Assembly (NCBI GenBank): GCA_963717365.1
Contig: OY970327.1
Span: 799,752-863,751, forward strand
Length of the DNA stretch: 64,000 nt
DNA from: Candidatus Saccharimonadia bacterium
Lineage (GTDB): Bacteria; Patescibacteriota; Saccharimonadia; Saccharimonadales; 2-12-FULL-41-12
Direction: 5' to 3'
The notes beneath the pieces were generated by a model. It did not search any database. It saw nothing but the letters and a program-made list of their open reading frames with translations, and was not told the DNA's origin. The position numbers and the translations under genes are program-made. This document shows, one piece after another, positions 9,192-26,425 of this stretch (position 1 is its first letter; each line of letters begins with the position of its first letter).

Positions 9192-9205
9192 ACTTCCTTT
9201 TAGTT

Positions 9206-11034: not shown

Positions 11035-11064
11035 TACTTATGCTTATTATCTTATATATTATAC

Positions 11065-11691
11065 TTATAGCCTACTCTTTACAAACGTCGTGATTTCAGA
11101 CGTGGCGCAGAACTGGCCGCCAAATCTTGATGAAATACAGGTATTGCCAGGACTGAGATCGAAATCACCATACACTATTTTTACAAATAATCGTACCGGT
11201 CTTGCCGAAGTAGGGGGAGGAGCTACGTCAAAATTAGTTAGTCGCATATTGGCACCTATCAGTTCGCGGCCGGTGAAACTTGTGTTTCTATTGGCGTCAG
11301 TCGCCGGGTTAACCATATTGGCTGTTTGGCACGGTACGGTATCAAGAATCCTATCTACCCACAGGACGTGTCTGGCCTGGCCTGCTCCCAATGGGCCACT
11401 GAGTGTTAGTTGTGTGTTTAGTACAAAGCTATATCGAACGTAGCCAACACAAACAGCGCCAGGTGCACTGGTTATAGTTTTATTGCCGCCCGTTTGGATA
11501 TTACGCGAAATGTCTTCAATAATGGCACGACTAGTATCTTGTGTCCGCGAAACAACCGCGCCTTTATAGTAAATTTTACCAATATGTAGGATCGCTGAAG
11601 TGGCGATAAGCATCATAATGGCAAATATTGAGGTAGCAATGAGCAGCTCAACGAGCGTGAATCCATTTTGCTTTTTTATCAGTTTATTCAT
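11065..11691 (-). CDS. Prepilin-type minor pilin (PilW-like)
   Basis: 208 aa. Class III signal MNKLIKKQNG|FTLVELLIATSIFAIMMLI (Gly-1, Phe+1, Glu+5). Confidence 0.55.
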   Translation of the reverse strand: MNKLIKKQNGFTLVELLIATSIFAIMMLIATSAILHIGKIYYKGAVVSRTQDTSRAIIEDISRNIQTGGNKTITSAPGAVCVGYVRYSFVLNTQLTLSGPLGAGQARHVLWVDRILDTVPCQTANMVNPATDANRNTSFTGRELIGANMRLTNFDVAPPPTSARPVRLFVKIVYGDFDLSPGNTCISSRFGGQFCATSEITTFVKSRL

Positions 11692-11716
11692 AACACATTG
11701 TTTCCTTTAGACATTA

Positions 11717-12352
11717 TCATGGACAGCCAGGGAACCAAGGTAATAAAACACATACGATAGGAGGGAGGACAACGGGAGGGACAACGGGAGGTACTACAGG
11801 AGGGACAACGGGAGGTACAACGGGAGGTACTACAGGAGGGACAACGGGAGGTACTACAGGAGGGACAACGGGAGGTACTACTGGGCCGGGAGCTAGAGAA
11901 CCGACATTTTTATTACATGCTAGATAGAACGTTGTTAGCTCTTCAGGAGTTTGCTTAATAAGAGAATCCCAGGTAACCCGAACTGTGAGCGGTAAAGTTT
12001 CCTCACAAAGCAAGCTGCCAGCAGGATTAGGGTTTAAGACTGACACTGCATATAAGCCATCGGCGAGTGGGCAAGCTGCTACCGCGTCTACCCTACTAAG
12101 CGGGATGTTTTCTTGCAGACAAAATGTTCCCGCTGGCAAAATAGCATCAGTGGTATAACCGCGTAGCAGCTCCAGTTGTGCTTCCATTACCTTAGTGGCA
12201 CGTGACCGCTCCTGAGAAGCTTGAGCAGCCGCCTGGTTGCGATTTGTCAACGTAAACGCGGAGAGTAACATAAAACCTAGAGCTGCCAGGCAAATCAGAA
12301 CTTCAACAATTGTTTCACCGCGTTCAGATTGTTGGCGTATCATGCTGGGCAT
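11717..12352 (-). CDS. Prepilin-type minor pilin (PilV-like) with C-terminal (PPVV)n repeat
   Basis: 211 aa. QQSERG|ETIVEVLICLAALGFMLL (Glu+5). C-terminus GPVV(PPVV)9LPPIVCVLLPWFPGCP. Overlaps the upstream gene by 13 nt. Confidence 0.5.
   Translation of the reverse strand: MPSMIRQQSERGETIVEVLICLAALGFMLLSAFTLTNRNQAAAQASQERSRATKVMEAQLELLRGYTTDAILPAGTFCLQENIPLSRVDAVAACPLADGLYAVSVLNPNPAGSLLCEETLPLTVRVTWDSLIKQTPEELTTFYLACNKNVGSLAPGPVVPPVVPPVVPPVVPPVVPPVVPPVVPPVVPPVVPPVVLPPIVCVLLPWFPGCP
11768..11884 (-). repeat. 12-nt tandem repeat (~10 units) encoding PVV(PPVV)9
   Basis: Plus-strand units GGGAGG(G/T)AC(A/T)AC repeat head-to-tail from 11768 to 11884. Units differ only at synonymous third positions. 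Confidence 0.9.
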
Positions 12353-13134
12353 CCTGCTGCTGCCAAGTCAGCAGTCTCAAATTTTGACTCAATTGCTCCC
12401 CCTCGGTTACCGCCAAAACTAATAACTGCCCGGCGGTTAGCGTCAACGTCTTTTACGCAAATTACTATACCACTAGCCGCATTGGTGATATTTGTGGCAG
12501 CCATAGCTGCTACGGGGCCATTCATTTGCGCATTGGTAGCCGGTAGGGGCACCCCCGGCACAGTCGCCAGCACGGCACTACCTGAATTATTAACAACGCT
12601 TGCCTCGACTGGATTTTGTGTCTTCCCAAAACTAGGCAATATGGCAAAGGCAGCCGAATCGACACCTCCTACGATTATTCGGGTGAATCGAAGATTAGGA
12701 TATAGACTTTTTTCTTCTGTATAAGCGGCAGTTGTAATAATTCGGGGCATAGCCTCGCCAATATCTTTCACTTCTTTTCCATTGATACCGGGAGTTACCC
12801 TATCTCCGGCAATAGTATAGATATTGTAGTTATTTGGATTGCTATTAGCTCCGAATTGGATTGCTTTGCCGGCAAAGATACAATTGGCGCGCGTGCCCTG
12901 CCCACTAGCACCGCTACATCCTGGCGGGTTAGTGGCGGATTCTGGAAAATAACCAGCGTCGACGTCGTTAATAGCATCTTGAATTGCTGTTTCAACATCC
13001 CTGACTGATCGAGTAAATTCAGTTCTGGTTTGCTGCCCGCTAATAATCGATGCGACTGACGCGAATAAAGCAGTACTAATTGCCAGGAATAATAACACCT
13101 CAACCATGGTATAGCCATATTGGCTCAGTTTCAT
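12340..13134 (-). CDS. Prepilin-type minor pilin (FimT/GspH-like)
   Basis: 264 aa. MKLSQYG|YTMVEVLLFLAISTALFASVA (Gly-1, Glu+5). Confidence 0.5.
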   Translation of the reverse strand: MKLSQYGYTMVEVLLFLAISTALFASVASIISGQQTRTEFTRSVRDVETAIQDAINDVDAGYFPESATNPPGCSGASGQGTRANCIFAGKAIQFGANSNPNNYNIYTIAGDRVTPGINGKEVKDIGEAMPRIITTAAYTEEKSLYPNLRFTRIIVGGVDSAAFAILPSFGKTQNPVEASVVNNSGSAVLATVPGVPLPATNAQMNGPVAAMAATNITNAASGIVICVKDVDANRRAVISFGGNRGGAIESKFETADLAAAGCPA

Positions 13135-13140
13135 AGCTAA

Positions 13141-13156
13141 ATTATAGCATAAGCAC
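13141..13156 (-). promoter_or_regulatory. Extended -10 promoter (TGCTATAAT); start codon 6 nt downstream (leaderless candidate)
   Basis: Minus-strand reading GTGCTTATGCTATAAT-TTAGCT-ATG(13134). No Shine-Dalgarno can fit in the gap. Confidence 0.5.
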
Positions 13157-13178
13157 TGTTAGACTTAGCCTGAGAAAT

Positions 13179-14006
13179 TTATAGTCCTATCTGATGTATA
13201 TACCAGTCGCTCATTGCTTTGCCAAGCAATACAACAATAAAGCATCCGGCAATTAAAAACGGGCCAAACGGTATGCGTGTTTGCTGGGTAGCACGTTTTG
13301 TCATCAGCAGCGGCGCTATGGCGAGGGTACCGAGAGTTGAAGCGATAAATAGCATGATGAAGGCGTTAGCCGGACCACCAGCCAGAGCGCCAAGCAGGAA
13401 GCCGAGCTTAACGTCTCCGCCGCCAATCCAACGGCCTTTCGAGAATTCAAATAATAGATAGAAAATACCACCGCCAATCAATGCGCCAATCATGGCGCCT
13501 AGCAATGGTGTAAAGCTGCTTGCTTCCAGCATTCGCGCTATAACATAGACGCTGGCTACGCCATATAGCGGGAAAATTATTCGGTTTGGCAGCAACATCC
13601 AACGAATATCATAGATAATAAGCGCCATAAAGCCTGTTAAACAGGTCAGCCAAGCCCCAAATACCAACAATTCCCAACCGGTTATGTCTCGGGGCCAAAA
13701 AGCATAACTGAGCGCAAATAAAAGAGCTGTTGCTAGTTCCACTGCTGGGTATTGCCAGCTAATTGGCTTTTTACAGTAGCGACAGCTACCTCTCAAGCTT
13801 AGCCAGCTAAGTACTGGCACCAGATCGCGGATACCTAACGTATGGCTGCAATTAACGCACATTGAGCGACCGGTGCGAATAGACAATTCTTTATCACTCG
13901 CCGTCCGCTTTTTCTTTGATAGGTTTTGCTCATATATGCGCCAAACCAGCGCATTTACAAAGCTGCCAAAGCATAAGCCAAGTAGTATAATTGCAGCAAT
14001 AATCAT
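13179..14006 (-). CDS. pilD: Prepilin peptidase / N-methyltransferase (A24 family)
   Basis: 275 aa, polytopic. Cys-rich cytoplasmic loop CVNCSHTLGIRDLVPVLSWLSLRGSCRYCKKPISWQYPAVEL. GGGDVKL aspartyl-protease motif. Confidence 0.9.
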   Translation of the reverse strand: MIIAAIILLGLCFGSFVNALVWRIYEQNLSKKKRTASDKELSIRTGRSMCVNCSHTLGIRDLVPVLSWLSLRGSCRYCKKPISWQYPAVELATALLFALSYAFWPRDITGWELLVFGAWLTCLTGFMALIIYDIRWMLLPNRIIFPLYGVASVYVIARMLEASSFTPLLGAMIGALIGGGIFYLLFEFSKGRWIGGGDVKLGFLLGALAGGPANAFIMLFIASTLGTLAIAPLLMTKRATQQTRIPFGPFLIAGCFIVVLLGKAMSDWYIHQIGL

Positions 14007-14023
14007 TATGCTTAGCTTACCAT

Positions 14024-14053
14024 ATAAAAAAGAACCCCTGGAATGAGAGGTCC
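14024..14053 (-). terminator. Rho-independent terminator after pilA
   Basis: Minus strand: GGACCTC (14053-14047), loop TCATTCCA, GGGGTTC (14038-14032) with two G-U pairs, then TTTTTTATAT. Begins 26 nt after the pilA stop. Confidence 0.6.
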
Positions 14054-14078
14054 TTTTCTACGATAAACTTAAGCTATA

Positions 14079-14522
14079 CTAGCTGCCGACGCAGCGTCCA
14101 GCAGGTGTGCCGGTGGTTTCCACCTGGAACGTTATAGTAAAGGATCGGCCACTACCTGCAACGGAGGCGGTACCGGCAGCATCACATTTTGTAGCATATG
14201 CGAATGTAAACGCGTCGGTGCTAGGACCACCGACAGCTATTAATTGTTGGTTATCCGCAATGGTAACATAGTTGCCAATTTCAGTGCCTGCCGTGAAGTC
14301 GTCACAGTTGCCGATCTTGCCGTTGTTATTAGCTAGACACTCATTAACTGCTGACGCGGTACGTGCCGCGTCGTTGGTCCGCTGCGTATTACGGCTATTG
14401 CGCTGCAGGGCTGGCACTGCCAAGAAGACGATGACCAGGATTAAGCCGGCAATAGCCAGCACAATCAAGACTTCGATGATCGTAAAGCCCTGTTCGTTTC
14501 TTTTTAGTATTGGTTGTTTCAT
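14079..14522 (-). CDS. pilA: Type IV major pilin
   Basis: 147 aa. MKQPILKRNEQG|FTIIEVLIVLAIAGLILVIVFLAVPALQRN (Gly-1/Phe+1/Glu+5). Cys pairs in the C-terminal half. Has its own promoter and terminator. Confidence 0.85.
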   Translation of the reverse strand: MKQPILKRNEQGFTIIEVLIVLAIAGLILVIVFLAVPALQRNSRNTQRTNDAARTASAVNECLANNNGKIGNCDDFTAGTEIGNYVTIADNQQLIAVGGPSTDAFTFAYATKCDAAGTASVAGSGRSFTITFQVETTGTPAGRCVGS

Positions 14523-14573
14523 ATTGTTTTCTATGCCCCCTAGAAAGCAAGGTTATTAATGCTTATGGTTTTC

Positions 14574-14602
14574 AATATAGTTTAACTGGGTCATATATGC
14601 AA
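14574..14602 (-). promoter_or_regulatory. Sigma-70-type promoter for pilA (TTGCAT-17-TATATT)
   Basis: Minus strand: TTGCAT (14602-14597), 17-nt spacer, TATATT (14579-14574). About 45-nt 5' UTR with an AGGGGG RBS before the ATG at 14522. Confidence 0.55.
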
Positions 14603-14618
14603 GTGGTAACTTCATAAC

Positions 14619-15842
14619 TTAACCACCCAAGCTTGTATTGCCAGCAAGCCCGTATATGGGCAGCAATACCGCAGCAACTACTATGAAAGCCACAACACCA
14701 AGGATAACCATCAGTAGCGGCTCAATGATAGTACTAATTGTTTTTATTTGGTTATCTACTTCTTTTTCGTAGTATTCGGCAGTTTTCTCTAACATATCCT
14801 CTAGCGCGCCAGATTGTTCGCCAATACGGAGCATATTTGGTACTAGTACTAAGAAATTAGGATCGCCGTCTAGCGCGTCAGCAATTGATTTACCGCCTTT
14901 TACCTTTTCTATGGCTTGGTGGATTGATTTTTCAACATGGACATTATTAATTGCTTTACCAACAATTTCTAGCATCTGAATCAACGGGATACCACTGGCA
15001 ATTAAGGTTGTACCAGTACGTGAAAAACGAGCCATATATAACTTCATGAAGAGCGGTCCAACCGGCCATGACTTCATTTTAACTCTGTCTACCACTAGCT
15101 TACCGGGCCCGGTGCGAGCATAACGCGACAAGGCAAAAATGATAAAGATCGTAGCGGCGATAAAAAAATACCAGTAATTTATGGCAAAATCCGAGAATGC
15201 AAGCAAGGCTCTGGTAATAAGGGGTAGTTTTGCTCCTGGCAGTTCATCATAAATTATTTTAACCTGCGGTAGTACCTTGACGACCATAAACCCGAGCACT
15301 GCAATCATGACCAAAATAATGATCAACGGGTAGGCTAAAGCGCCTTTAACCTTGCTCATTATTTCGGCGTCTTTTTCTTGCTGGAGGGCAATACGCTCCA
15401 GGGCAGCGTCAAGCGTACCCGATGCTTCACCTGCAGCAATCAAGCTGATATATACTTCATTAAATACCTTTGGGTGCTTCTCTAGTGCTTTTGAAAAAGA
15501 TTGTCCGCCTTCAATATCACTAATGATCTCTGTTATAACAAGTTTAAATGCTTTATTGGTAGTCTGGTCGTTGACGTTGCGGAGACTCTGGGTGAGCGGC
15601 AAGCCGGCATTAATCAACGTAGACATCTGACGAGAGAAGATAATTCGGTCTTTAGTAGAAATACGGTTGGTAAGCTTGGAAAGTGCATTGATAGCTTTAC
15701 TGTCAGCCAACTTTATATCAAGCGGCGCCAGTCCTTCGCTTTTAATAAGCTTTGCGGCTGATGCTTCGCTGTCAGCCTGAACACTGGAGCTAACCTTTTG
15801 ACCGGTGGCAGGGTCGCGGGCAACGTAGTCATATGTCAACAT
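14619..15842 (-). CDS. pilC: Type IV pilus platform protein (GspF/PilC family)
   Basis: 407 aa. Two T2SS-F repeats (RIIFSRQMSTLINAGLPLTQSL ... FSRTGTTLIASGIPLIQML), 3-4 TM helices. Confidence 0.9.
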   Translation of the reverse strand: MLTYDYVARDPATGQKVSSSVQADSEASAAKLIKSEGLAPLDIKLADSKAINALSKLTNRISTKDRIIFSRQMSTLINAGLPLTQSLRNVNDQTTNKAFKLVITEIISDIEGGQSFSKALEKHPKVFNEVYISLIAAGEASGTLDAALERIALQQEKDAEIMSKVKGALAYPLIIILVMIAVLGFMVVKVLPQVKIIYDELPGAKLPLITRALLAFSDFAINYWYFFIAATIFIIFALSRYARTGPGKLVVDRVKMKSWPVGPLFMKLYMARFSRTGTTLIASGIPLIQMLEIVGKAINNVHVEKSIHQAIEKVKGGKSIADALDGDPNFLVLVPNMLRIGEQSGALEDMLEKTAEYYEKEVDNQIKTISTIIEPLLMVILGVVAFIVVAAVLLPIYGLAGNTSLGG

Positions 15843-15845
15843 AAC

Positions 15846-16916
15846 TTATCCCCGCATCAACCTGTCTAACTCATCAATATCGACCGCTACCATACGGGCT
15901 TCGTCGTACGTAATAGTGCCAGAATGTATCAGATTAACTAGTGTCTTATCCATTGATTGCATACCAAACTCGGCGCCGGTCTGTATAACCGCTTCCAGCT
16001 GGTGCGTTTTACCTTCGCGGATAATATTACGAACGGCTGGCGTAGCCGTTAAAATCTCTGCTGCTGCAATTCGGCCACCACCAATGGCTGGTACTAAGCG
16101 CTGCGAGCAAACTGCCATTAAAATATTGCTCAGCTGCGCCCGAATTTGTGGCTGCTGGTGTGGCGGAAATACGTCAATCATACGGTCGATACTCTGAGCC
16201 GCACCGTTGGTGTGTAGCGTGGCGAATACGAGATGTCCGGTTTCAGCGATGGTAATCGCCGCCGCGATGGTCTCTAAGTCACGCATCTCACCTAATAACA
16301 CTACGTCGGGGTCTTGGCGCAAGCTGCTGCGCAGAGCGGCCGAGAATGAGTAGGTGTCATAGTGGACTTCACGTTGCACAATGACCGACTTAAGGCTTTT
16401 ATGGGTGAATTCAATCGGATCTTCAATCGTTACAATATGCATGCCCTTTTCGGCATTTATTTTATGAATCAGCGCCGCTAAAGTTGTAGATTTACCAGAA
16501 CCGGTTGGCCCGGTAACAAGCACAAGTCCACGCGGATAATCAGCAAACTTCTTAACAGTGTCGGGCAAACCAAGCTGGTCGGTGGTTAAAATATCGTTCG
16601 GGATTAAGCGTAAAGCAGCTGCTAAGTTACCACGTTCATGAAAGGAGTTAACGCGAAAACGGCCTAAGTCTCCAAAGGCAAAGCTAAAATCAAATTCTTT
16701 ATCTTTAAGCAAAATTTGCTTTTGTTCATCATCTAAAATAGCAAAAATGAGAGCTTCAACAGTTTCGGCGGTCAGCACGGCGGCGCCAGAAACAGGCACC
16801 AAAGCACCATCAACGCGGAGTATTGGCGCTAGTCCCACCTGAATATGAAGGTCGGAAGCTTTCTTTTTAATTACTTCTTCGAGTAGTTGTTCGATTCTTA
16901 CATTTGGTGTCGCCAT
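15846..16916 (-). CDS. pilT: Type IV pilus retraction ATPase
   Basis: 356 aa. ASDLHIQVG, Walker A GPTGSGKSTT, TIEDPIEF, LRQDPDVVLLGEMRD, ETGHLVFATLHTN. Size and motifs match PilT rather than PilB. Confidence 0.9.
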   Translation of the reverse strand: MATPNVRIEQLLEEVIKKKASDLHIQVGLAPILRVDGALVPVSGAAVLTAETVEALIFAILDDEQKQILLKDKEFDFSFAFGDLGRFRVNSFHERGNLAAALRLIPNDILTTDQLGLPDTVKKFADYPRGLVLVTGPTGSGKSTTLAALIHKINAEKGMHIVTIEDPIEFTHKSLKSVIVQREVHYDTYSFSAALRSSLRQDPDVVLLGEMRDLETIAAAITIAETGHLVFATLHTNGAAQSIDRMIDVFPPHQQPQIRAQLSNILMAVCSQRLVPAIGGGRIAAAEILTATPAVRNIIREGKTHQLEAVIQTGAEFGMQSMDKTLVNLIHSGTITYDEARMVAVDIDELDRLMRG

Positions 16917-16931
16917 TATATTGCCTTTTTA

Positions 16932-18725
16932 TTATGCGCTGTCAGCTGACGCCACGCGGTTAACTTCATCTACGGTTGTCATGCCCGCCAAGGCTTTGAA
17001 ATAGCCGTCCTGGCGCATAGTTACCATCCCCTGCTCTTTGGCAGCCCGTTCAATCTCGCTGCTGGTCGCATGCTTGATAATGAGCTTCTGGATGGTTTCA
17101 TCTACTTCAAACACTTCGTAGAGGCCCATACGGCCCTTGTAACCGCCCGGGGTTTCAAGGCCGTCTACACCCTTGTATAAAGTATAAGCGTTTTGCTTAG
17201 CCAGTGGCAAGGTCTCATAGCCAATATCATCGGCGCGGGCCGCAACCTCTTCTGGAGTACCTGGTAACAGGTCACCGATATTGCTTAATAAGGCGTCTGT
17301 TTCGGCGGCGGTTGAGTCGTAGGGAGCTTTATTAGTATCGGCTACCCGACGTACCAAGCGCTGGCCAATGACTGTTCTTACCGTTGAGGCAATCAAGAAT
17401 GGTTCAACCCCCATATCCAGCAAACGCGGTAAGATACCGGCTGCCGAGTTGGTGTGCAGCGTGCTAAAGACCAAGTGACCTGTTAGGGCCGCCTGGACAG
17501 CCAGCTGGGCTGTTTCCTTATCGCGGATCTCCCCTACCATCACCACGTCAGGATCTTGACGCAAGATAGAACGCAGGCCAGTTGCAAAGGTCAGGCCAAC
17601 TGCCGTATTAACCTGGATTTGATTGATACCATCCATTTTGTATTCAACCGGATCTTCCAGCGTGACAATGTTAATTGATTCGTCTTTAATCTCCTGAATC
17701 AAGGCATACAATGAAGTAGACTTACCGGAACCGGTTGGTCCGGAGGTTAGGATCATGCCGTTGGTCTGCTTAATGCCTTTGCGGATAGTGCGTAGAGCGC
17801 GGCCATGATAACCCATATCTTCTAGCTTTAGAGCCGTACCAGATTTATCGAGCAGACGAATAACCACTTGCTCACCCCAGACTACCGGCGATATAGCTAT
17901 ACGCAGGTCGATAGCTTTATTGGCAACAGCAACCGTAAACTGTCCGTCCTGCGGAATACGGTGTTCGTCGATTTTAAGATTACTCAAGATCTTGATACGC
18001 GAAATTAATGGTGGTTCGGTAGACTTTGGAAGTTTCATAATTTCTTTGAGAACACCGTCAATTCGGCAACGGATCTTCAGCTCTTTTTCCAGCGGTTCAA
18101 TGTGAATATCGCTGGCCCGGTTCTTAGCGGCATACTCCAAAATAGTTGATAATGCCTTACTAATAGGCGAATCCTGAACAATGGTTTTTATCTCGGTCTG
18201 GGCACTTATTGCAGCCTGTGCAGCAGCCTTGTCCTCAGGGTTAACACTAATACCAATCGCCTGAGCCACATCAGCTTCAACATCCTCATCGTACTGCGTC
18301 AGGACATGACGAATACCTTCTTCGCTGGCGGTATAGACTTTGAGTGTATGGCCAATGCGATTTGCTAAAAAGTCGACTGCTTGGACATTATCGGCGTCCA
18401 GCATGGCAACAACCAGACGGTTCTGGATCTGACCTAATGGAACAGCCATATAATGCTCAGCGATTTCTTTGGGCAGCAGCCTGAGTACTTCCCGTTCAAT
18501 ACGGGCTTCGAGCAAGTTTACGTATGGCACATGATTAATTTCGGCAAAAAGCTTAGTAAGAATTTCGTTAGAAATATGGCCTTTTTCTAGCAATGTTGCA
18601 AAGTAGGGCGTGCCGGTTTTTTCTGAATCGGCTCGCGCCAAGTCTAGCGCAGCCTGATTGATCAACCCCTGACTAACCAGTTTTGCTTCGACCTTTTTTT
18701 GTACTTCCGGCGATAATACTGCCAT
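16932..18725 (-). CDS. pilB: Type IV pilus assembly (extension) ATPase, GspE/PilB family
   Basis: 597 aa. N-terminal GSPII-type domain, Walker A GPTGSGKSTS, TLEDPVEY, LRQDPDVVMVGEIRD, LTGHLVFSTLHTN. Confidence 0.9.
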   Translation of the reverse strand: MAVLSPEVQKKVEAKLVSQGLINQAALDLARADSEKTGTPYFATLLEKGHISNEILTKLFAEINHVPYVNLLEARIEREVLRLLPKEIAEHYMAVPLGQIQNRLVVAMLDADNVQAVDFLANRIGHTLKVYTASEEGIRHVLTQYDEDVEADVAQAIGISVNPEDKAAAQAAISAQTEIKTIVQDSPISKALSTILEYAAKNRASDIHIEPLEKELKIRCRIDGVLKEIMKLPKSTEPPLISRIKILSNLKIDEHRIPQDGQFTVAVANKAIDLRIAISPVVWGEQVVIRLLDKSGTALKLEDMGYHGRALRTIRKGIKQTNGMILTSGPTGSGKSTSLYALIQEIKDESINIVTLEDPVEYKMDGINQIQVNTAVGLTFATGLRSILRQDPDVVMVGEIRDKETAQLAVQAALTGHLVFSTLHTNSAAGILPRLLDMGVEPFLIASTVRTVIGQRLVRRVADTNKAPYDSTAAETDALLSNIGDLLPGTPEEVAARADDIGYETLPLAKQNAYTLYKGVDGLETPGGYKGRMGLYEVFEVDETIQKLIIKHATSSEIERAAKEQGMVTMRQDGYFKALAGMTTVDEVNRVASADSA

Positions 18726-18744
18726 ATGCGTAACTCAGCCCAGC

Positions 18745-18981
18745 CTAGAAAGGTGAGGTATTACTTTCATCACCAATTCTGATAAGCTTTGTTGGGTTGA
18801 TGGAGTCTTGATTGAAGACAGCCTTGTCGGCTTCTTTGAATTCGCTGGTTATCGGTTCAATTTTTTGAGCGGTTTGCTGCTTGCTGCTACTTGATACAAA
18901 TACCGTTTTGGTCATAATTATAGAGAAGAGACCGCCAACAAAAACAACAATGATGATAAGCGCTATATCTTTTTGTTTCAT
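18745..18981 (-). CDS. Small single-TM protein in the pil operon (PilP position)
   Basis: 78 aa. N-terminal TM helix IALIIIVVFVGGLFSIIM. Overlaps the upstream gene by 4 nt. No family recognised. Confidence 0.4.
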   Translation of the reverse strand: MKQKDIALIIIVVFVGGLFSIIMTKTVFVSSSSKQQTAQKIEPITSEFKEADKAVFNQDSINPTKLIRIGDESNTSPF

Positions 18982-19646
18982 CGGACTTGCTCCGTTTCAA
19001 CCTTAAATACTTTACTTGGCTGGTAGTATGTTTTGCCCTCAATCGTCAAATCCGGAGCTTTTCCAAGCTCTATTTTAAGCGTCAGTTTCTTAACTTGAAT
19101 AGGACGGATTGACCGTTCTAGCAAGCGGACTGCAGAGGTTCCAGAAGTTGGAGCAACGGCAATTTTTACTGAAAATGGAACCTCAACTGCTTGTGGCGTG
19201 GCCGTTTGCTGTGACTGGGCAACCTCGTCGTCAGCACCAACAATTTCCTGTATTTGGAAGCCGTTTTCATTAAAAATTTTCTCTAAACTAGTAGTCAAAG
19301 CTGGGAAATCATATTTGTCTGGTAATGCATCACGCACAATTCTGGCATTATCACCATCTCTGTCTCCTACCCCAGCCGGGTTACCGCCCAAAATATTAAT
19401 TGGCTTACCATTAAACGATTTGAATTCGTTGTCCAGTTTTTTGTAAGCCTCGGCGTTATCTTTTAGCTGTTTAAGGGCAACTTCTTTTTTATTAATTACG
19501 CGTGACTGGTATGCCTGCTGGTCGAATAAGCTTTTACCAGCTACCAAGCAGAAGGCAACAATAAAGGCAGCGATGCCTGATGCTACCAGAATTGTCACCT
19601 GGGCGCGGTCAATTTCGATTCGCTTAGCCGATAATTTTCGTGCCAT
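18978..19646 (-). CDS. PilO-like pilus alignment protein
   Basis: 222 aa. Topology is TM helix (VTILVASGIAAFIVAFCLVAG) + coiled coil + C-terminal domain. Positioned directly after pilN. Assigned from context and topology only. Confidence 0.4.
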   Translation of the reverse strand: MARKLSAKRIEIDRAQVTILVASGIAAFIVAFCLVAGKSLFDQQAYQSRVINKKEVALKQLKDNAEAYKKLDNEFKSFNGKPINILGGNPAGVGDRDGDNARIVRDALPDKYDFPALTTSLEKIFNENGFQIQEIVGADDEVAQSQQTATPQAVEVPFSVKIAVAPTSGTSAVRLLERSIRPIQVKKLTLKIELGKAPDLTIEGKTYYQPSKVFKVETEQVR

Positions 19647-19648
19647 GA

Positions 19649-20395
19649 CTACTGCCCTCCGTTCTGTTTAGTTGAAGCTGGCGCCGCGAACAAGCTACCT
19701 GGAGAGTCTGAAATAGAACGAGCCGATATTATGTTTGGTATCACGAGCGTAATTGCAGGCTTGCCTTCGGCTATATCTTTTATGTTTGAGAAGATTACTG
19801 GATCGAATGAAGCAAGTATTTCATATTCTACAGTGCCACCAGCGGCGGTAGCTGCACCAGAATTTTTAGCAACAACTTCAAATTTTTGTAAGACGACATT
19901 GCTAAAGGCTGTACCGTCCGGTTTTTCGCTCTTGCTTAATTGGTATTCACTGAATTTCAGCGTATCAACGTATTTGTTAACGGTACCAAAACTATCGGAA
20001 TTACCTTTAATAAGTAGGGTATTATCGTCGAGATTTAGTTCGATGTCAGAAATAGTAGCTTTACTTGGTGTCAGTTGGAACATATAGTCAAATAGCCGCG
20101 AGCTAATAGCCTTGTCATCATGCAGCTTAGGCAGACTGTTTAATTGATTCTGGACGGTCAGAATTTTATCAAGGTCGGGAGCGTCTTTTCTAAGCGTTTC
20201 TACTCCATTATTAATATCGTTATCCATGTGCTTGATGTGGCCTAACTGGCCAATCCGTACATACGAAAATAGAGCCGCGAACAGCAATACTGAGGTTGCC
20301 GAGGAAACGATTGATATGGCTACCACCATACGCATTCGCCGGCGCGCTTTTAAAAATTCAATCTTTACATCTGGTAAGAGGTTAAATTGGATCAT
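19649..20395 (-). CDS. pilN: PilN-like fimbrial assembly protein
   Basis: 248 aa. N-terminal IQFNLLPD motif followed by a TM helix. Overlaps pilM by 4 nt. Confidence 0.6.
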   Translation of the reverse strand: MIQFNLLPDVKIEFLKARRRMRMVVAISIVSSATSVLLFAALFSYVRIGQLGHIKHMDNDINNGVETLRKDAPDLDKILTVQNQLNSLPKLHDDKAISSRLFDYMFQLTPSKATISDIELNLDDNTLLIKGNSDSFGTVNKYVDTLKFSEYQLSKSEKPDGTAFSNVVLQKFEVVAKNSGAATAAGGTVEYEILASFDPVIFSNIKDIAEGKPAITLVIPNIISARSISDSPGSLFAAPASTKQNGGQ

Positions 20396-21432
20396 TCGTT
20401 ACGCTCCGCCAGGCCTGTCGCCACGCCAAAATGGTTAGACAATGCCATCAATTCGTTCTGCCGGGCCATATCGTATTGGACATTGCGCCAGGCATTTCCA
20501 ATCTCTACGTTAATACCAAACTTATTAGCAATATACAGCGGGAATTCAGGGAGAGACGAGGCACCGCCGGTCATAATAATCCGATTCAGTTTTACCCCTT
20601 CGTAACGAGATTCGAAGAACTTGATTGATTTATCGATGTCACCCATCAGCAACTCGACGGTATTTACAATTGCTTGGTAGACCTGGCCTTCTAGTTTTTG
20701 CTGGCTCAGTCCAAATTTAAAGACAAACTCCTGAGCCTGTTTTTCATCAATATTAAGGTTTTGCATGGCAGCCCGGATAATTGCCTCTGAGCCAGTTGGG
20801 ATAGCACGGGTTAGATGTGATACGCCGTTCATTGTGATCACAATGTCAGTGCTTTTACTGCCAATATCGATGATCATATTTGGCGTAGCGTCATCCGGCG
20901 CGATCATGGAACGCACCAGCGCTAAGTTATCAGGTTCAAAGGCGATCACATTCAGCCCGATTGATTCTATGAGGTCGAGCCGCGGCTCAATAAAATCATT
21001 GGAAACGCTAGAAAGTAATATCTCTAATTTGTTTGGGTTCTTTGGCGCGTCGCCAATGACCGCCCAGTCAATTTTTGACTCGGCTGCCGGGGTTGGAATT
21101 AATGCGTCGGCTTGGTATTTAATGGTTTTAGCAAGTTCATTGAGTGGTAAACGTTCGATGTCGACAACGGTAGTAAAAACACGTGCCGACGGTAGCCCCA
21201 CTACCACGTTTTTGGTGGTAATATTAGCACTGGCCAGCATTTCCTTAACAGATTGCATCAACTTTAGCTGATCAGCTTTAGAATCGCTCATTGCTACCTT
21301 GGTATCAACCGGCGCAATGGCGTATTTCATCAACTGTTTTGATTTTGGGTTGTTGGTTATCTGTACCGCACGTATGGCGGTACTGCCGATATCCAGGCTA
21401 AAGAATTCCGATACCCCACTCAGTAAGCTCAT
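20392..21432 (-). CDS. pilM: Type IV pilus assembly ATPase-fold protein PilM
   Basis: 346 aa. Actin-like fold with FSLDIGSTAIRAVQI phosphate-1 motif and DIGSKSTDIVI. Confidence 0.85.
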   Translation of the reverse strand: MSLLSGVSEFFSLDIGSTAIRAVQITNNPKSKQLMKYAIAPVDTKVAMSDSKADQLKLMQSVKEMLASANITTKNVVVGLPSARVFTTVVDIERLPLNELAKTIKYQADALIPTPAAESKIDWAVIGDAPKNPNKLEILLSSVSNDFIEPRLDLIESIGLNVIAFEPDNLALVRSMIAPDDATPNMIIDIGSKSTDIVITMNGVSHLTRAIPTGSEAIIRAAMQNLNIDEKQAQEFVFKFGLSQQKLEGQVYQAIVNTVELLMGDIDKSIKFFESRYEGVKLNRIIMTGGASSLPEFPLYIANKFGINVEIGNAWRNVQYDMARQNELMALSNHFGVATGLAERNE

Positions 21433-21490
21433 TCTTTTATATTATTTCCGTTTATTATTTTTATGCATAATTAATTCTTCTTATGGTCTA

Positions 21491-21506
21491 ATTATACCAT
21501 AAGCAT
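21491..21506 (-). promoter_or_regulatory. Extended -10 (TRTG-type) promoter for pilM operon
   Basis: Minus-strand reading ATGCTTATGGTATAAT, 59 nt upstream of the pilM ATG (21432), in the 76-nt gap after the 1050-aa gene. Confidence 0.5.
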
Positions 21507-21508
21507 TT

Positions 21509-24500
21509 TTAAAGGATAGGTGGCAACGTAACGATATATTCGTATTTATTGCCCGTCTGGCTGCCTTGAGCGCGGAAGGAAGATGAGCTGCCGTATTGAC
21601 CCAGCAAGACCTCTGGTGTCATTCGGACGGCTTCGCCGGCCTTGGTTGGGTTTGGCGGGACCTGGGCAACGCCGTCAAAGGATTCCCGTGGCGTATAAAC
21701 CCGGGTACCTGCGACGATATTGTATTTTATGTCTCGCAACGTATATTTAACTCGGTAGAATTTGAGTTTATTGGCGGCTAGCAAACCGTTTATTTTCAGT
21801 TGCTCCTGAGAACATAGATTAGCTAGGATATCTCTGTCACCTGATGAAGCCAGATTAAACGGCGTGCCATTATTGGTACAGGTATGGATTTCGCCGTTCG
21901 CGCCGGCGGGAGTTGTTGACTGTGCAATATATATGCCGTCCAGCTGCTTTACGTTGTGAGAGATATAGATATTGCCTTTAACAATCAGCGTAAACGATGG
22001 AATTGAATCAATCGTAGCGCCGGTTGGACCGTAGGTAATATCACCGTTGATGATCACATTGCCTTCAACGTACATAGTATGTCGTCCGGTGAAGCCTGCC
22101 GCCCCGCCAAGCGTACCGCCACTGGCGTGATACGACTGATTGTTCGATTGTACCGAACTTACGCCGGCAACAGAACCCGGCCAACCCTGAGGTGTTTCTT
22201 TGGTCTCGCGCTTGATAGTTTCGTCAAAGTATTTTGGCTGGCCAGCAGGACGCAACACATTCACAAGTTTCAGCTCATCAGGGGTTTGCGGTTTAGGGGT
22301 GGCCGAGGGAGTTGTTGCACTTCTGAAGAAAGCGCTGGCAAAATCAATTGGAGTAGTAGCACTAATCACGGCAAATTCTCCGCCAGAACCAGCACCTTGT
22401 GCAGGATTCGCCATAAAGCCTGTGACCTTTCCACTTCCAGCCGTCGGACCGCCTGATATAACATCATTGCCGTAAGCGCGCATGAACGGCGTATTTACCA
22501 CTTCTCCACACATAATATCGTAGTTAGGCAAGCCAGGAGCAATAACCGTACTAGTACCAAGTACTTTTGCCGCTCCGGGATACGGCTGGCCATTCGTCCA
22601 CCCCTGGTTATAGTTAATATCCATACGGGCACAAAACTGGTCGCCTGGGTTCCAGGTATTAGCCGGCGCGGCTCTAAACTGGGTTGGCGCAGCCGCGTTA
22701 AAGTACGTTCTGTTCCAGACACGTTGCCAGGTGTTTGTCTGGTTAAGCGTAGACGCGGGCTGAGCAGTTTTTCCATTGTTATTTATAGAGTCATTATCAA
22801 GAGGTGGCCCGACTAAAACGGTATTTGTACTTGGCGCAGGATCATGCCTTAAGTAGTTAAGTTGGTTATTACCAGCTATGAGTATTGGCTTGTCGAAGTA
22901 CGCGACACCCAGCGGACCAGTTCCCAAGGTTGCTTCTACTCTTGTAGCATAGTTAATACTCAACGGATCTTCTGGATTGGGGTTAGGCGTCACGCTCGTC
23001 ACCCGAGGTTTTACCTGGAACGGCTGGAAGACGTCTATTGTGATGGAACAGGGCGCACCGATACCAAAGAGACCGTAATAATCAGGATAAACTTCTATGG
23101 TATATCTTCCGGCGCTAGGCGGTGCCGTAAAGGCAAAACTGCCCGTAACCGAAGAGCCGACTTCAACCTGCTGCCCAACCGCATAATATGCCGCGGCGCT
23201 AAACCCTGGAGAAGTGCCTCCCGCGGTAGTCAGTGCTAATGGCGCCGATCCAATCTGTGCATAGAGCGGATTATTATCACTGCCGCCGGTATTACTTAAT
23301 GTGTAATTGAGGTTGAAGCCCAGGCCAGCGGCAACACCTGCCGCAGTCGACGCTCCCGGAATAGCGCCCGACGTGGCTGTTATGGAATCCAGGCTACAGC
23401 TTGCCTCGTAGCAGGCTCCGACAGATGCCCGCACAGGCGTAGTAGTATCACCGTCGGTCTGATTTAGCCGCAAATCTCTAACAATCAAATCTGCCACCCA
23501 GCCATTGTTCGGCGCAGTTTCTGCAGGATAACTCAAAAATACGTTACCAGAACCTCTGCCTGAAGCAATTGTTAGCTTACCAGGATCATTATCCTGGTAT
23601 ATGTATACTTCGTAATAAACCCCTGTGCCTGTATCGTCTGGGTCAGAAATATTAATTGTTATGCCACGGCAAGTCATTGATGCGATAGAGTATGCGGGCA
23701 GATCCTCGGTACAGTCTTGATTTGTTGAAGTAGTTGAACTCAAAGTCTGAATCTCGGCCGTTGTATCCTCATTCCCAGCATAAATCTTAAGTATGAAGAC
23801 TACCCCCGCTGTCCTGCCATCATATCCACCACCTCCCACGGTGCCACCAGTTATTGGGACGCTATAGAGACCTTCTGTTGGGCCTGTAGCGCCCCTTCCA
23901 CCTGGAGTAACTTCATTATTGCCTGATACCGAGTTAACGAACATTTTATAACGCTTATTCTTATTGGTAGAATAACCATAGACCTTATCGCAGTCAAAAA
24001 GCATATTGCCGTTTGGAGTTCCTGTATCGGGCGGTGGCGGCTCATTATAGGTAATAGTAACAAAAGTAGTGTCGCCATTAGGGGGAGCCACTGTTCTAAC
24101 GTTCCAACCGTAGCCTTCGGCCGTACCAAAACCGGCACGAAGACCTCTGGCACCCGTTGGAACACCTACCCCCGTCACATCAAATTGTTGAAATGGATTT
24201 AGCTCAGGACTGGCTGCTCTTCTAGAGTTATCACAATCAAGTGCCCAGTTGGTTTGTCCGCCGCCAGTATCGGGAGAAGAACCTCCTGTACCGAGAACCG
24301 CATTAGTGCTGTCCGAGGCAACGCCACCTGTCAAAAAAGGACATCCACCAATTTGACTAAATGTTTGTTCTGCATAATGCTGATTATTGTTAAGGTTTAT
24401 AACGCCGCCAGGAGGTGTAGTGGTAGCACCGGAGGTAGTTACTTTAACTCGATTATCGTTAGATGGCTGATAGGAACTTGAGTCATAATCCCAGTACCGA

Positions 24501-24661
24501 GAGCTGACCACTAAACCCGCGTAGTCGTGTATATTACCACTCTGAACACCGCAAGATGCACTTGCGTTTCCGTGATCAAATAGGGATAATCCAAGCAAAC
24601 TTCCGCCTAGTAAAAATAAGAATATTGTCCACCGACTGGAGAGGTTGATTATCTTATTCAT
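21509..24661 (-). CDS. Very large secreted protein of unknown function (1050 aa), heading the pilus locus
   Basis: Signal peptide (WTIFLFLLGGSLLGLSLFDHGNASA). Gly/Thr/Asn/Pro-rich with scattered Cys pairs. C-terminal beta-helix-like segment (HTMYVEGNVIINGDITYGP...LIVKGNIYISHNV). No internal repeats and no recognised domain. Confidence 0.7.
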   Translation of the reverse strand: MNKIINLSSRWTIFLFLLGGSLLGLSLFDHGNASASCGVQSGNIHDYAGLVVSSRYWDYDSSSYQPSNDNRVKVTTSGATTTPPGGVINLNNNQHYAEQTFSQIGGCPFLTGGVASDSTNAVLGTGGSSPDTGGGQTNWALDCDNSRRAASPELNPFQQFDVTGVGVPTGARGLRAGFGTAEGYGWNVRTVAPPNGDTTFVTITYNEPPPPDTGTPNGNMLFDCDKVYGYSTNKNKRYKMFVNSVSGNNEVTPGGRGATGPTEGLYSVPITGGTVGGGGYDGRTAGVVFILKIYAGNEDTTAEIQTLSSTTSTNQDCTEDLPAYSIASMTCRGITINISDPDDTGTGVYYEVYIYQDNDPGKLTIASGRGSGNVFLSYPAETAPNNGWVADLIVRDLRLNQTDGDTTTPVRASVGACYEASCSLDSITATSGAIPGASTAAGVAAGLGFNLNYTLSNTGGSDNNPLYAQIGSAPLALTTAGGTSPGFSAAAYYAVGQQVEVGSSVTGSFAFTAPPSAGRYTIEVYPDYYGLFGIGAPCSITIDVFQPFQVKPRVTSVTPNPNPEDPLSINYATRVEATLGTGPLGVAYFDKPILIAGNNQLNYLRHDPAPSTNTVLVGPPLDNDSINNNGKTAQPASTLNQTNTWQRVWNRTYFNAAAPTQFRAAPANTWNPGDQFCARMDINYNQGWTNGQPYPGAAKVLGTSTVIAPGLPNYDIMCGEVVNTPFMRAYGNDVISGGPTAGSGKVTGFMANPAQGAGSGGEFAVISATTPIDFASAFFRSATTPSATPKPQTPDELKLVNVLRPAGQPKYFDETIKRETKETPQGWPGSVAGVSSVQSNNQSYHASGGTLGGAAGFTGRHTMYVEGNVIINGDITYGPTGATIDSIPSFTLIVKGNIYISHNVKQLDGIYIAQSTTPAGANGEIHTCTNNGTPFNLASSGDRDILANLCSQEQLKINGLLAANKLKFYRVKYTLRDIKYNIVAGTRVYTPRESFDGVAQVPPNPTKAGEAVRMTPEVLLGQYGSSSSFRAQGSQTGNKYEYIVTLPPIL

Positions 24662-24679
24662 ATATTTATCTTTCCCATT

Positions 24680-25723
24680 TTAATAGCCTTTATACTCAGC
24701 TTTTAAGTTTTGCGTCTGTTTATCAAATTCTTCTTTTGCAACAGGCTGGCTCTTAGGTACATCTTCAAGGAGCACAAAATAATAATACATATCCACTGAT
24801 TCGGCTTTTGCGTCTGTTCCAACAAGTGCTTTTCCTGTCTGTACATCCAACAAAGATTGCTGTTTATGCGAAGTAATAAAGCTTGTTATCGGTTTATAAA
24901 ATATCTGCGTGTGCCAATTCACATTTGTTTTTTCGCCAAAACGTGTGCTGTGGTTAGAGGTACTTTTAATACTGTTGCCAAGCCGGGGGTCAGATAAGAT
25001 CTGCTTTAAGACTTCATCTGGCTTTATTTTATTGTCCTTAAGTTGCTGGTGATAAAAGTCAGCCTTCTCTTTGGCATAGTTCTTATCTTGCTCAACTAAC
25101 TTAGGGTCGTTTAGGCCATCAGGTCGATAAGCAGGTCCATATTGTAAATGTTGTCCAAAATAAAAATCAAAAGCGTATCCCTTATAGCCTGGAGCAGTTG
25201 TAATTCCGATGTAGTCGTCAACTACGGCTGCTTTAGCTATAAGGTTAAGCCAACTTTCTTTATTATGAGCAGAGTCTTGAGCATTGTCTGGGATTTCTTT
25301 TTGATAAGTGGCTATCTCTTCATCACTAGGTTTAATACCTAACTGCTCTGCCACATAAATCTTCTTTAACAATTCAAATAATAGCTTGGCCGATTCATTT
25401 TTATTAGTACCTCTTGCTTCTACCGGGTACTTAACGAGTTCATTTACTTCACTTTCGTGATACTTTTTGCCATCGATTGAAAAGATCACAGGATTGCCAG
25501 ATTTTCCAAATCTATCACCATTAAATAAAACCATACCTATAATTACTGCTATGACAACCGTGAATCCAGCTAAATACAAAAGACTTCTTTTGGAAAGCTT
25601 AGTAAGTTGACGTTGTTTAAAATTCAGTTTTATATTGCGCATTTTATCATTACATTGAGATACATTGCTTATGGTTTCTCTTCTAGCCATTATTGTACAA
25701 GTCTTGTGCTTATTCGTAAACAT
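24680..25723 (-). CDS. Membrane-anchored hypothetical protein with SurA-N-like chaperone segment
   Basis: 347 aa (alternative starts at M12 or M28). One TM helix (SLLYLAGFTVVIAVIIGMVLF). ESAKLLFELLKKIYVAEQLGIKPSDEEIATYQKE resembles the SurA-N/PpiD helical domain. Stops 18 nt before the 1050-aa gene start. Confidence 0.4.
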   Translation of the reverse strand: MFTNKHKTCTIMARRETISNVSQCNDKMRNIKLNFKQRQLTKLSKRSLLYLAGFTVVIAVIIGMVLFNGDRFGKSGNPVIFSIDGKKYHESEVNELVKYPVEARGTNKNESAKLLFELLKKIYVAEQLGIKPSDEEIATYQKEIPDNAQDSAHNKESWLNLIAKAAVVDDYIGITTAPGYKGYAFDFYFGQHLQYGPAYRPDGLNDPKLVEQDKNYAKEKADFYHQQLKDNKIKPDEVLKQILSDPRLGNSIKSTSNHSTRFGEKTNVNWHTQIFYKPITSFITSHKQQSLLDVQTGKALVGTDAKAESVDMYYYFVLLEDVPKSQPVAKEEFDKQTQNLKAEYKGY

Positions 25724-25861
25724 AAGCCTGACTAACTTATAGGTAATTTAATTTTTGTTAAGTTTTATTTTTTGATTTTTCTGGGCTTTTATGTAGAAAG
25801 ATTGATTAACTACATAAAATATGCTAGTATCGGCAGTAGGATTCATAAGAGGTATTTAGCA

Positions 25862-26425
25862 ATGGAGCAAGCGCCAGCACAACAACAATTTGAAGGTGAA
25901 ACTAAACGTCATATAGGCATGCGTGGGGCTGTAGCCGTAGCAATGGCTGCAACCGTAGCTTTTTTTGCGAGCGAAGCTATGACTACACGAGGAGAGGCTG
26001 GCGAGCGAAATACTCTCCTAGAAGGGCTAACTCCTGCAGAGCGAGAATTCAGATGTGCTAGTTGGGGGACTCAAAGGCCTTTTGCCGCAAAATCTGAATA
26101 TATTAATAGTTCACGCAGCAAATTTAGAATCGCCTTTAAACAAGATTCGGTTGAAGGATGTACTCCTATAGGACAACGTAGTCTTGTATACTTTCAGGAA
26201 ATACAAAAAGATGGCGAATGGCAGCGTAACAGCCGCATCTCTAAACCCGTTGCTGGGAATACTTTCAAAACTGTTAACAGTATCGTTACAGCGCCTTATT
26301 CTTGCGGAAGCAACATTGGCCAGACCATGGTAAGGCGAGTAGTCCGCGTTACTTGGAATCCTAAAAAGCCAGGCGTAGAAAACACTTCTCAGACATATCC
26401 AGGAAAAGCTAAAAACGTCTGCTAA
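25862..26425 (+). CDS. Hypothetical membrane-anchored protein
   Basis: The track ORF opens at 25772. ATG 25862 is preferred because AAGAGG lies ~10 nt upstream (MEQAPAQQQFEG...). One TM helix (GAVAVAMAATVAFFASEAM). No family recognised. Confidence 0.5.
   Translation: MEQAPAQQQFEGETKRHIGMRGAVAVAMAATVAFFASEAMTTRGEAGERNTLLEGLTPAEREFRCASWGTQRPFAAKSEYINSSRSKFRIAFKQDSVEGCTPIGQRSLVYFQEIQKDGEWQRNSRISKPVAGNTFKTVNSIVTAPYSCGSNIGQTMVRRVVRVTWNPKKPGVENTSQTYPGKAKNVC

Follow-up and report, generated by a model that had tools for sequence, protein, structure and literature searches.

We have analysed a window of 64,000 nucleotides (nt) from the genome of a Candidatus Saccharimonadia bacterium (contig OY970327.1), in which two adjacent genes of the minus strand, here called gene A and gene B, lie directly ahead of pilM at the head of a type IV pilus locus. 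In this window B represents a large and unnamed family of exported envelope proteins, and in the Saccharibacteria loci that were sampled this family holds the first position of the retractile pilus locus, before pilM, pilN, pilO, a gene for a protein of 78 amino acids (aa), pilB, pilT, pilC, pilA, pilD and the minor pilins. B would function like the large non-pilin proteins that are tied to type IV pili, yet it belongs to none of them, and at the phylum level it is an accessory and not a universal part of the pilus machine. As to its role, we give about an even chance to the reading that B is a cell-anchored accessory adhesin or host-contact factor that works with the pilus, and not a tip subunit on the fibre. 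The order of the genes 3′ of the pilus locus (PilX_N pilin, xerC, ndk, PH-domain protein, SurA_N/PpiC protein) is that of SEML1_0116-0121 in Southlakia epibionticum, which identifies the pilus locus of the window as T4P-1 of the Saccharibacteria. PilT, the retraction ATPase, is encoded in this locus, which drives twitching in cultured members of the group and is essential, as found in two genetically tractable strains (PMC11623550, PMC10633639). A sequence-only reading of the same DNA had described the two genes as a secreted protein and its membrane-anchored helper, with 18 nt between the stop of A and the start of B and 76 nt between the stop of B and the start of pilM, all on one strand; these coordinates and gaps agree with the open reading frames (ORFs) of the window, and the next gene, which starts at 21432, is indeed pilM, as it matches both PF11104 and TIGR01175.

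The position of B proved to be conserved well beyond the window. Metagenome contigs were scanned with patterns of the C-terminal module of B only (QLDGxY[VI]AQ, [VA][KR]GNIYI...), built on a 10-sequence C-terminal alignment, and 80 loci were obtained (L010-L089). ORFs were called in these loci and matched to the proteins of the window, and the count of pilM uses the 71 loci in which 700 nt or more of sequence follow the B homologue. In 65 of these independent loci pilM directly follows the B homologue, at a median gap of 64 nt, and after pilM come, where the contig permits, pilN, pilO, pilB, pilT, pilC, pilA and pilD. Linkage of B to pilM was also found in six closer loci (L001, L002, L004, L006, L090 and L092), and the gene order of the window recurs in L001, L004, L006, L090 and L092. 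Since the loci were retrieved by similarity to B alone, the linkage to pil genes is not an artefact of selection. The sequence-only reading had proposed to look for the gene pair next to pilM in related genomes, and for B this conservation is now established in the loci just described. Two B genes lie in tandem upstream of pilM in L015, L033 and L061, which suggests duplication and diversification.

Conservation of position goes together with rapid change in sequence. Between the window and locus L090 the identity is 91% for PilM, 90% for PilT, 87% for PilB, 84% for PilC, 79% for the 78-aa protein, 74% for PilO, 73% for PilN and 66% for PilA; the core of B is 53% identical and the N-terminus of B is replaced. 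Over the 80 metagenome loci the median identities to the window are 64% for PilM, 84% for PilT, 68% for PilB, 62% for PilC, 44% for PilO, 40% for PilN and 47% for PilA, and 30% for the 400 residues of B that are conserved best. No other protein of the pilus locus is as divergent as B, which outpaces even the major pilin. Divergence of this kind is typical of exposed proteins that face changing partners and is unusual among core structural components, and together with the variable N-terminus and conserved C-terminus it fits a surface or host-contact role of B.

The size of the family became visible by exhaustive profile searching only. A HMMER search with the profile of the B family, covering 1.84 billion cluster representatives (clusters at 50% identity), returned 3300 clusters at E<=1e-3, of which 2804 remain at E<=1e-10 and 1372 at E<=1e-30. 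As the majority of the matches set in close to profile position 420, the part common to the family is the C-terminal stretch of about 600 residues. A word-indexed search with B had retrieved two relatives only, and one with an 80-sequence alignment just three known proteins, the word index evidently favouring low-complexity words. The closest relatives of B are all recorded as Candidatus Saccharibacteria or Saccharimonadales. B itself carries the C-terminal module of the family (IPSF.L.VKGNIYI ... QLDG.YVAQ ... TC ... R ... AAE.F.F.PE, ending LPPxL-COOH), and in 141 of the 150 best family representatives an LPPxL-like motif, preceded by Y-D/Q-x-I-T-S/T, is the very C-terminus. That no motif could be assigned to B, as had been said from its letters, is borne out by library scans: B matches no Pfam or NCBIfam family at E<=0.1 and no PDB sequence at E<=10, the family profile likewise has no PDB relative, and scans of seven other members against Pfam gave a weak CARDB match and SurA_N_3 in one member. 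Secretin (PF00263), N0 and AMIN domains were matched neither by B in Pfam or NCBIfam nor by the seven members in Pfam. In the literature on Saccharibacteria pili that was searched (PMC11623550, PMC10633639 and PMC9894109, an incomplete coverage) neither the gene nor the family is described.

The composition of B is rich in Gly (12.0%), Thr (10.1%), Asn (7.4%) and Pro (7.1%), and it has 13 Cys, in keeping with the earlier description; nine of the Cys are kept in at least 80% of 80 aligned family members, which fits an extracytoplasmic location. Judged from its sequence, the N-terminus is of the Sec type, either a cleaved signal or a signal anchor, and not a prepilin signal. Residues 8-27 form a helix in the AlphaFold model, a hydrophobic N-terminal segment is present in 130 of 149 family representatives, and the prepilin family PF07963, which neighbouring pilin-like genes do match, was not matched by B in the Pfam scan. 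B is not a pilin. The N-terminal domain that follows the signal (residues 37-215) is restricted to about a dozen of the 150 best family matches, and is replaced in the close relative encoded at L090.

B was modelled with AlphaFold2 and the 80-sequence alignment, at a mean predicted local distance difference test (pLDDT) score of 67.8. Residues 105-320 are poorly modelled (pLDDT below 50); three beta-sandwich domains follow, at about 321-400, 410-530 and 538-610, and residues 841-1015 form a stack of short strands, beta-solenoid-like, with a pLDDT of about 90. The latter result agrees with the beta-helix-like stretch YVEGNVIINGDITYGP...IVKGNIYISHNV proposed from the sequence, the short stacked strands of 841-930 being in the best-modelled part of the protein. 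With the full model Foldseek returned generic tandem proteins of the fibronectin type III (FN3) and immunoglobulin (Ig) kinds only, at E of about 1e-5, and this places the stalk alone. Since these matches swamped the full-length search, residues 636-1050 were re-predicted alone (mean pLDDT 67), and no significant Foldseek match was obtained for them in PDB or BFVD. The best PDB match, itself non-significant, is ComZ of Thermus (6qvi_B, E=0.9, probability 0.30, template-modelling score 0.18), and further non-significant entries are ice-binding proteins, tapirins (E=2.4-8.9), bactofilin and HpmA. The C-terminal module is thus predicted to be beta-solenoid-like and is otherwise unplaced. It contains invariant C677, C928, C950, R970 and E1010, and D733 and D908 are nearly so. 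The description of B as a protein of unknown fold consequently holds for the C-terminal module, which is without significant structural match, and falls for about 290 residues that are ordinary Ig/FN3-like. The sequence-only reading had counted membership in an unrelated family, such as one of enzymes, as evidence against its proposal; sequence-library and Foldseek scans place B in none.

Gene A has seven database homologues of 297-347 aa, and every one with readable context lies directly upstream of a B homologue, mostly with a 4-nt overlap; the pair is kept as a unit in all nine close loci (L001-L009). The start codon of A is uncertain, as in-frame ATGs at codons 12 and 28 (positions 25690 and 25642) give lengths nearer the 297-336 aa of the homologues. 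The single transmembrane helix seen earlier in A was found again, as a hydrophobic helix at about residues 47-68. In the sampled loci the gene upstream of B encodes, without exception, a single-pass membrane protein whose ectodomain is helical, and in most loci other than those with A this is a protein of about 180 aa with one transmembrane helix and then tetratricopeptide (TPR) repeats, from a 23-member cluster that accounts for the upstream gene of 23 loci. These partners match TPR_1/2/8 up to E=2e-12, and several have a weak match to TPR_21 (PF09976), which we take to be the family including YfgM. A homology between A and these TPR partners was considered and rejected (hhalign probability 21%). 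In a further arrangement, found in P0004, P0016, P0018, P0058, P0079, P0086 and P0144, the core of B lies behind a transmembrane helix and a helical region in one polypeptide. P0004 is encoded at locus L090, where a single 1369-aa gene occupies the place of A and B between the same flanks as in the window (on the upstream side gnd, a phosphoribosyltransferase gene and a small gene in divergent orientation; on the downstream side pilM to pilD). The last 846 residues of P0004 share 53% identity with residues 195-1050 of B, and its first ~520 residues stand in for A, the signal peptide of B and the N-terminal domain of B. What all these arrangements have in common is a protein that spans the membrane once, bears a helical ectodomain and is linked to the B core either within one chain or as a separate one.

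In their architecture, A (an N-terminal transmembrane helix with a helical ectodomain) and the partners of most other lineages (a transmembrane helix with TPR repeats) recall PpiD, PrsA and other SurA_N proteins and YfgM. The fused relative P0004 passes the SurA_N_3 (PF13624) cut-off, with 28.8 bits against 27.2, and bears the NCBI name 'SurA N-terminal domain-containing protein'. SurA_N_3 is also the Pfam family with matches in the largest number of A-family members, namely in 4 of 10, none of which reaches the cut-off (best E=0.003), with E=0.17 and 12.1 bits against the same cut-off for A of the window. A rotamase (PpiC) domain was not matched at E<=5 in any of the 10 A-family members. A differs from PpiD, PrsA and SurA_N proteins in being sub-threshold for SurA_N_3, in having no detectable parvulin domain and in being dedicated, by its position, to a single client. 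The window does encode a genuine membrane-anchored SurA_N_3 and PpiC protein, PrsA/PpiD-like, at 587-1636 (-) (rotamase E=3.5e-13), the positional equivalent of SEML1_0121, so that the genome has a general foldase besides A. A paralogy of A with this protein was rejected, BLASTP finding no similarity and hhalign giving a probability of 0.6%. A may serve B as folding helper, as membrane anchor or adaptor, or in both ways.

If B is a cell-anchored accessory adhesin or host-contact factor, it would be exported by Sec and then held or folded by its partner at the outer face of the membrane, the two proteins being a two-chain version of the fused ones. The conserved C-terminal module and tail would dock to a conserved partner, which could belong to the pilus (its machine or its fibre) or to the cell wall, and the fast-evolving remainder of B would contact variable targets on the bacterial host. 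Several points weigh against this reading. What would connect B with the pilus is its genomic position only, and this position has exceptions: 6 of the 71 metagenome loci and L005 carry B away from pil genes. B is followed in L025 by an MFS transporter gene, PGI and ArgRS, and pilM is likewise missing after B in L046, L057, L081 and L088; in L027 no pilM was detected in a downstream stretch of only 700 nt. In L005 (6402-14011) the A-B pair stands amid FtsX, an opposite-strand CHAP protein and a PcsB-like coiled-coil/CHAP hydrolase, with a CtpA-type S41 protease after it, surroundings that amount to a cell-division or wall-hydrolase neighbourhood. In the oral model strain S. epibionticum ychF is directly followed by pilM, with no B gene there, and since its pilus locus is essential, B is dispensable for pilus function in some lineages; a search of the supplementary tables of its paper by fold keywords for a B homologue gave nothing conclusive. 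The spacer between B and pilM holds, on the coding strand, an extended -10-like sequence, TGGTATAAT, and because of this promoter-like element before pilM the two genes may not share a transcript. The AlphaFold models of B are of moderate confidence (mean pLDDT 67-68). As to A, hhalign aligned it to the N-termini of the fused proteins with 92% probability when the transmembrane helix was included and with 22% once it had been removed from both sides; the match is not relied on because the helix drives it. The 'SurA-N-like' character earlier attributed to A accordingly stands as a weak resemblance in position and architecture, and does not extend to a SurA_N_3 score above threshold or to a match with the genuine SurA_N protein. 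Given the sub-threshold domain and the match driven by the transmembrane helix, 'chaperone-like' is likewise a weakly supported label for A. It could just as well be a membrane anchor or adaptor, and in most lineages the partner is a different protein, with TPR repeats.

The reading closest to what had been proposed from the sequence is that B is a pilus-tip adhesin, docked on the minor-pilin tip complex through its C-terminal module and tail and riding the fibre, with A as its chaperone. Like PilY1/PilC of Pseudomonas, Neisseria and Myxococcus, B is a large Sec-exported non-pilin genetically tied to a type IVa pilus, with a conserved C-terminal and a variable N-terminal part, and is a candidate for surface or host contact; it diverges fast, its conserved disordered tail could be a docking strand, and ComZ heads the Foldseek matches of its C-terminal module, with tapirins listed too, both non-significantly. 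We nevertheless consider a tip location quite unlikely. At the orthologous position the core of B is fused behind an N-terminal membrane anchor, and such a protein, unless processed, cannot travel on the fibre; these membrane-anchored fusions speak against the earlier proposal of a pilus-tip factor. B also lies at the machinery end of the locus, before pilM and about 8 kb from the minor pilins (9949-13134, beyond pilD), whereas pilY1 lies among minor pilin genes, and unlike PilY1/PilC it has a dedicated membrane-anchored partner. It does not match PF05567 and has no vWA domain, its AlphaFold models show Ig-like domains and a solenoid-like module in place of a (seven-bladed) beta-propeller, and no PilY1 entry is among the Foldseek matches listed. 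ComZ of Thermus thermophilus and the tapirins of Caldicellulosiruptor would share with B a beta-solenoid-like module in a pilus-locus protein, but matches at E=0.9-9 and probabilities of at most 0.30 carry no weight, no sequence similarity links B to either, and ComZ is a pilin with a prepilin N-terminus, in contrast to the Sec-type N-terminus predicted for B. The statement that B is functionally comparable to PilY1- or ComZ-type proteins and apparently unrelated to them in sequence was right in its second half, as B is unlike PilY1 in sequence and predicted fold and its ComZ match (E=0.9) is non-significant. Alternatively, B could belong to the pilus machine as a structural component, forming an extracytoplasmic collar or conduit by which the fibre is guided across the cell wall or S-layer of these secretin-less bacteria, with the TPR or SurA_N-like membrane protein acting in the manner of a pilotin or assembly factor, which we see as unlikely. 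Gram-negative bacteria encode the PilMNO alignment subcomplex together with pilP and pilQ, and B directly precedes pilM, pilN and pilO; no secretin-type gene was noticed among the ORFs of the locus that were examined, membrane-tethered fused variants would suit an envelope-resident protein, and a small TPR protein beside a large beta-rich exported protein near pilM, pilN and pilO recalls the PilF/PilW/Tgl pilotins and PilQ. The partner here, however, is anchored by a transmembrane helix and is not a lipoprotein, and no oligomerisation or ring features and no secretin, AMIN or N0 domain were detected in B by Pfam or Foldseek. Saccharibacteria are not known to have an outer membrane. It also speaks against a structural part that B is the most divergent protein, has its N-terminus swapped between close relatives and is sometimes present in tandem, and that S. 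epibionticum, whose pilus locus is essential, has no B before pilM.

Beta-solenoids are frequent scaffolds of polysaccharide lyases and hydrolases, and a surface enzyme has to be considered too, in which the beta-solenoid module would bind or cleave a glycan in the manner of a lyase, hydrolase or tailspike and would remodel the cell's own wall for passage of the pilus or attack the wall of the host. Invariant R970 and E1010, nearly invariant D733 and D908 and the presence of the pair amid FtsX and CHAP/PcsB-like wall-hydrolase genes in L005 would agree with this, but the invariant residues could equally be structural, and B has no Pfam match to Beta_helix, pectate-lyase or other enzyme families and no significant structural match to any enzyme; we judge such an activity improbable. 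Least of all do we expect B to be an unrelated neighbour, that is, a generic surface protein whose position was inherited within one clade and which has no functional tie to the pilus. PilM is at least 54% identical to that of the window in all sampled loci, which makes these one related group, a promoter-like element precedes pilM, and B is found away from pil genes in a few loci. Yet the adjacency outlasts divergence to about 30% identity in the B core and about 40% in PilN and PilO, and it persists where the upstream partner, the N-terminal domain and the neighbouring genes have changed. Gram-positive MSCRAMM-type adhesins offer a likeness to B of another kind, with a signal peptide, a variable region, an Ig-like stalk and a conserved C-terminal end. 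In contrast to LPXTG proteins, B ends at ...TLPPIL with nothing after it, as do its relatives in 141 of 150 cases, and since no hydrophobic segment or charged tail follows, the LPPxL tail does not constitute a sortase signal. The window does encode a true sortase and an LPNTG substrate (8601-9766), apart from B.

Saccharibacteria live attached to other bacteria, and host recognition by these epibionts is little understood. Work on it has so far centred on the minor pilins of oral strains, at least one of which has no B at the locus. In most of the Saccharibacteria loci sampled here, which are largely metagenomic, B is the first gene of the pilus locus. The fastest divergence in the locus and a swapped N-terminus are the signature expected of a determinant of host range or surface interaction, which makes B a testable candidate. 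A broader proposal, which we put forward tentatively and hold to be rather unlikely as it stands, is that B and its membrane partner (A, the TPR protein or the fused form) make up an unrecognised, lineage-specific extracellular module of the Saccharibacteria retractile pilus, being either an envelope-crossing or collar component of a secretin-less machine or a device for host recognition. Were it a host-recognition device, the host range would be set by the exchangeable N-terminus of B, and the invariant tail at its C-terminus would engage the pilus apparatus. There is also a practical use, in that a profile of the B family, for which no Pfam or NCBIfam model exists, could annotate thousands of 'hypothetical proteins'.

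The features of the two genes and of the pilus locus are collected in the table. The names pilB, pilT, pilC, pilA and pilD were assigned from translations and from the close L090 homologues with their precomputed Pfam matches, and not from a Pfam scan of our own.

Table. Features of genes A and B and of the adjoining pilus locus (positions in the window)
Feature	Position	Strand	Remarks
Gene A	24680..25723	-	347 aa, ATG; single-pass membrane protein, lineage-specific partner of B
A, residues ~47-68, predicted transmembrane helix	25520..25585	-	SLLYLAGFTVVIAVIIGMVLF; read from sequence; hydrophobic block kept in family alignment
Gene B	21509..24661	-	1050 aa, ATG; exported multi-domain protein of large unnamed family
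B, residues 1-35, putative Sec-type signal peptide or signal anchor	24557..24661	-	K/R n-region, 18-residue h-region, A-S-A at 33-35
B, residues 37-215, N-terminal domain	24017..24553	-	motifs CGV.SGNIHDYAG, NWALDCDNS, APPNG; low AlphaFold confidence
B, residues ~321-610, three Ig/FN3-like beta-sandwich domains (stalk)	22832..23701	-	pLDDT 80-95; Foldseek
B, residues ~670-1020, family-defining conserved C-terminal module	21602..22654	-	alignment conservation; core 841-1015, pLDDT about 90
B, residues 1025-1050, C-terminal tail	21512..21589	-	...YEYIVTLPPIL-COOH; conserved sequence, predicted disordered, pLDDT below 50
B-pilM spacer, 76 nt	21433..21508	-	holds hairpin with 8-bp stem, 21480-21503
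pilM	20392..21432	-	Pfam PF11104 E=6e-37; TIGR01175 152 bits vs cut-off 133
Rest of pilus locus after pilM, whole span	9949..20395	-
pilN / pilN-like	19649-20395	-
pilO-like	18978-19646	-
78-aa gene	18745-18981	-	between pilO and pilB
pilB	16932-18725	-	named from translation and L090 homologue (MshEN/T2SSE)
pilT	15846-16916	-	named from translation and L090 homologue (T2SSE)
pilC	14619-15842	-	named from translation and L090 homologue (T2SSF)
pilA, 147-aa pilin	14079-14522	-	named from translation and L090 homologue (N_methyl)
pilD, prepilin peptidase	13179-14006	-	named from translation and L090 homologue (Peptidase_A24)
Pilin-like gene, 264 aa	12340-13134	-	no Pfam match
Pilin-like gene	11717-12352	-	weak N_methyl
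Pilin-like gene	11065-11691	-	one of four after pilD
Pilin-like gene, 361 aa	9949-11034	-	PilX_N

The hairpin in the spacer before pilM (CTTATGGT...ACCATAAG) lies directly after the stop codon of B and includes TGGTATAAT; from its sequence it could be a pilM promoter or an element of mRNA stability or processing. On the other side of the pair, a small secreted or membrane protein is encoded divergently from A at 25772-26425 (+), its probable start being an internal Met (MEQAPAQ...). A gene of similar size divergently adjoins A/B or the fused gene in L006, L009, L090 and L092, and in the two comparisons made the product is 32% identical to that of L006 and 27% to that of L090.

Within the locus, the 78-aa gene encodes a single-pass membrane protein that has no Pfam match. 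Conserved versions occur in L006 (84 aa) as well as in L090 and L092 (78 aa each), and its position corresponds to that of SEML1_0107, which is essential in the transposon-sequencing (Tn-seq) table of S. epibionticum; the protein may be a small part of the pilus machine that has so far escaped notice. Of the four pilin-like genes beyond pilD, Pfam backs three (PilX_N once and N_methyl twice, the second time below threshold). Toward its C-terminus the protein of 11717-12352 (-) repeats PVVP about ten times in tandem, and two Cys are found among its final 12 residues (...IVCVLLPWFPGCP). B was also compared with PilX1 of the TM7x study and rejected as its counterpart, PilX1 consisting of a pilin fold and a jelly-roll domain and being encoded at the far end of the locus; the equivalent of PilX1 in the window is likely the 361-aa PilX_N protein.

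Two genes directly follow this PilX_N gene, at 8601-9191 (-) / 9206-9766 (-), and encode a sortase (PF04203, E=1e-18) together with a small protein anchored by LPNTG. The pair sits between the pilus locus and xerC, and the gene order of S. epibionticum has no such insertion. Two secreted proteins encoded at 2639-3217 (+) and 3359-5563 (+) have in common repeated motifs of the type NTGP(D/N)S(E/T)NTI, followed by 'GNTTGGNA.SGDA' stretches, and the protein of 9206-9766 (-) has a similar single stretch (GTGPGSVNS). Pfam gave no match in the larger two of these three proteins, which, going by their motifs, may represent another unnamed family of surface-protein repeats.

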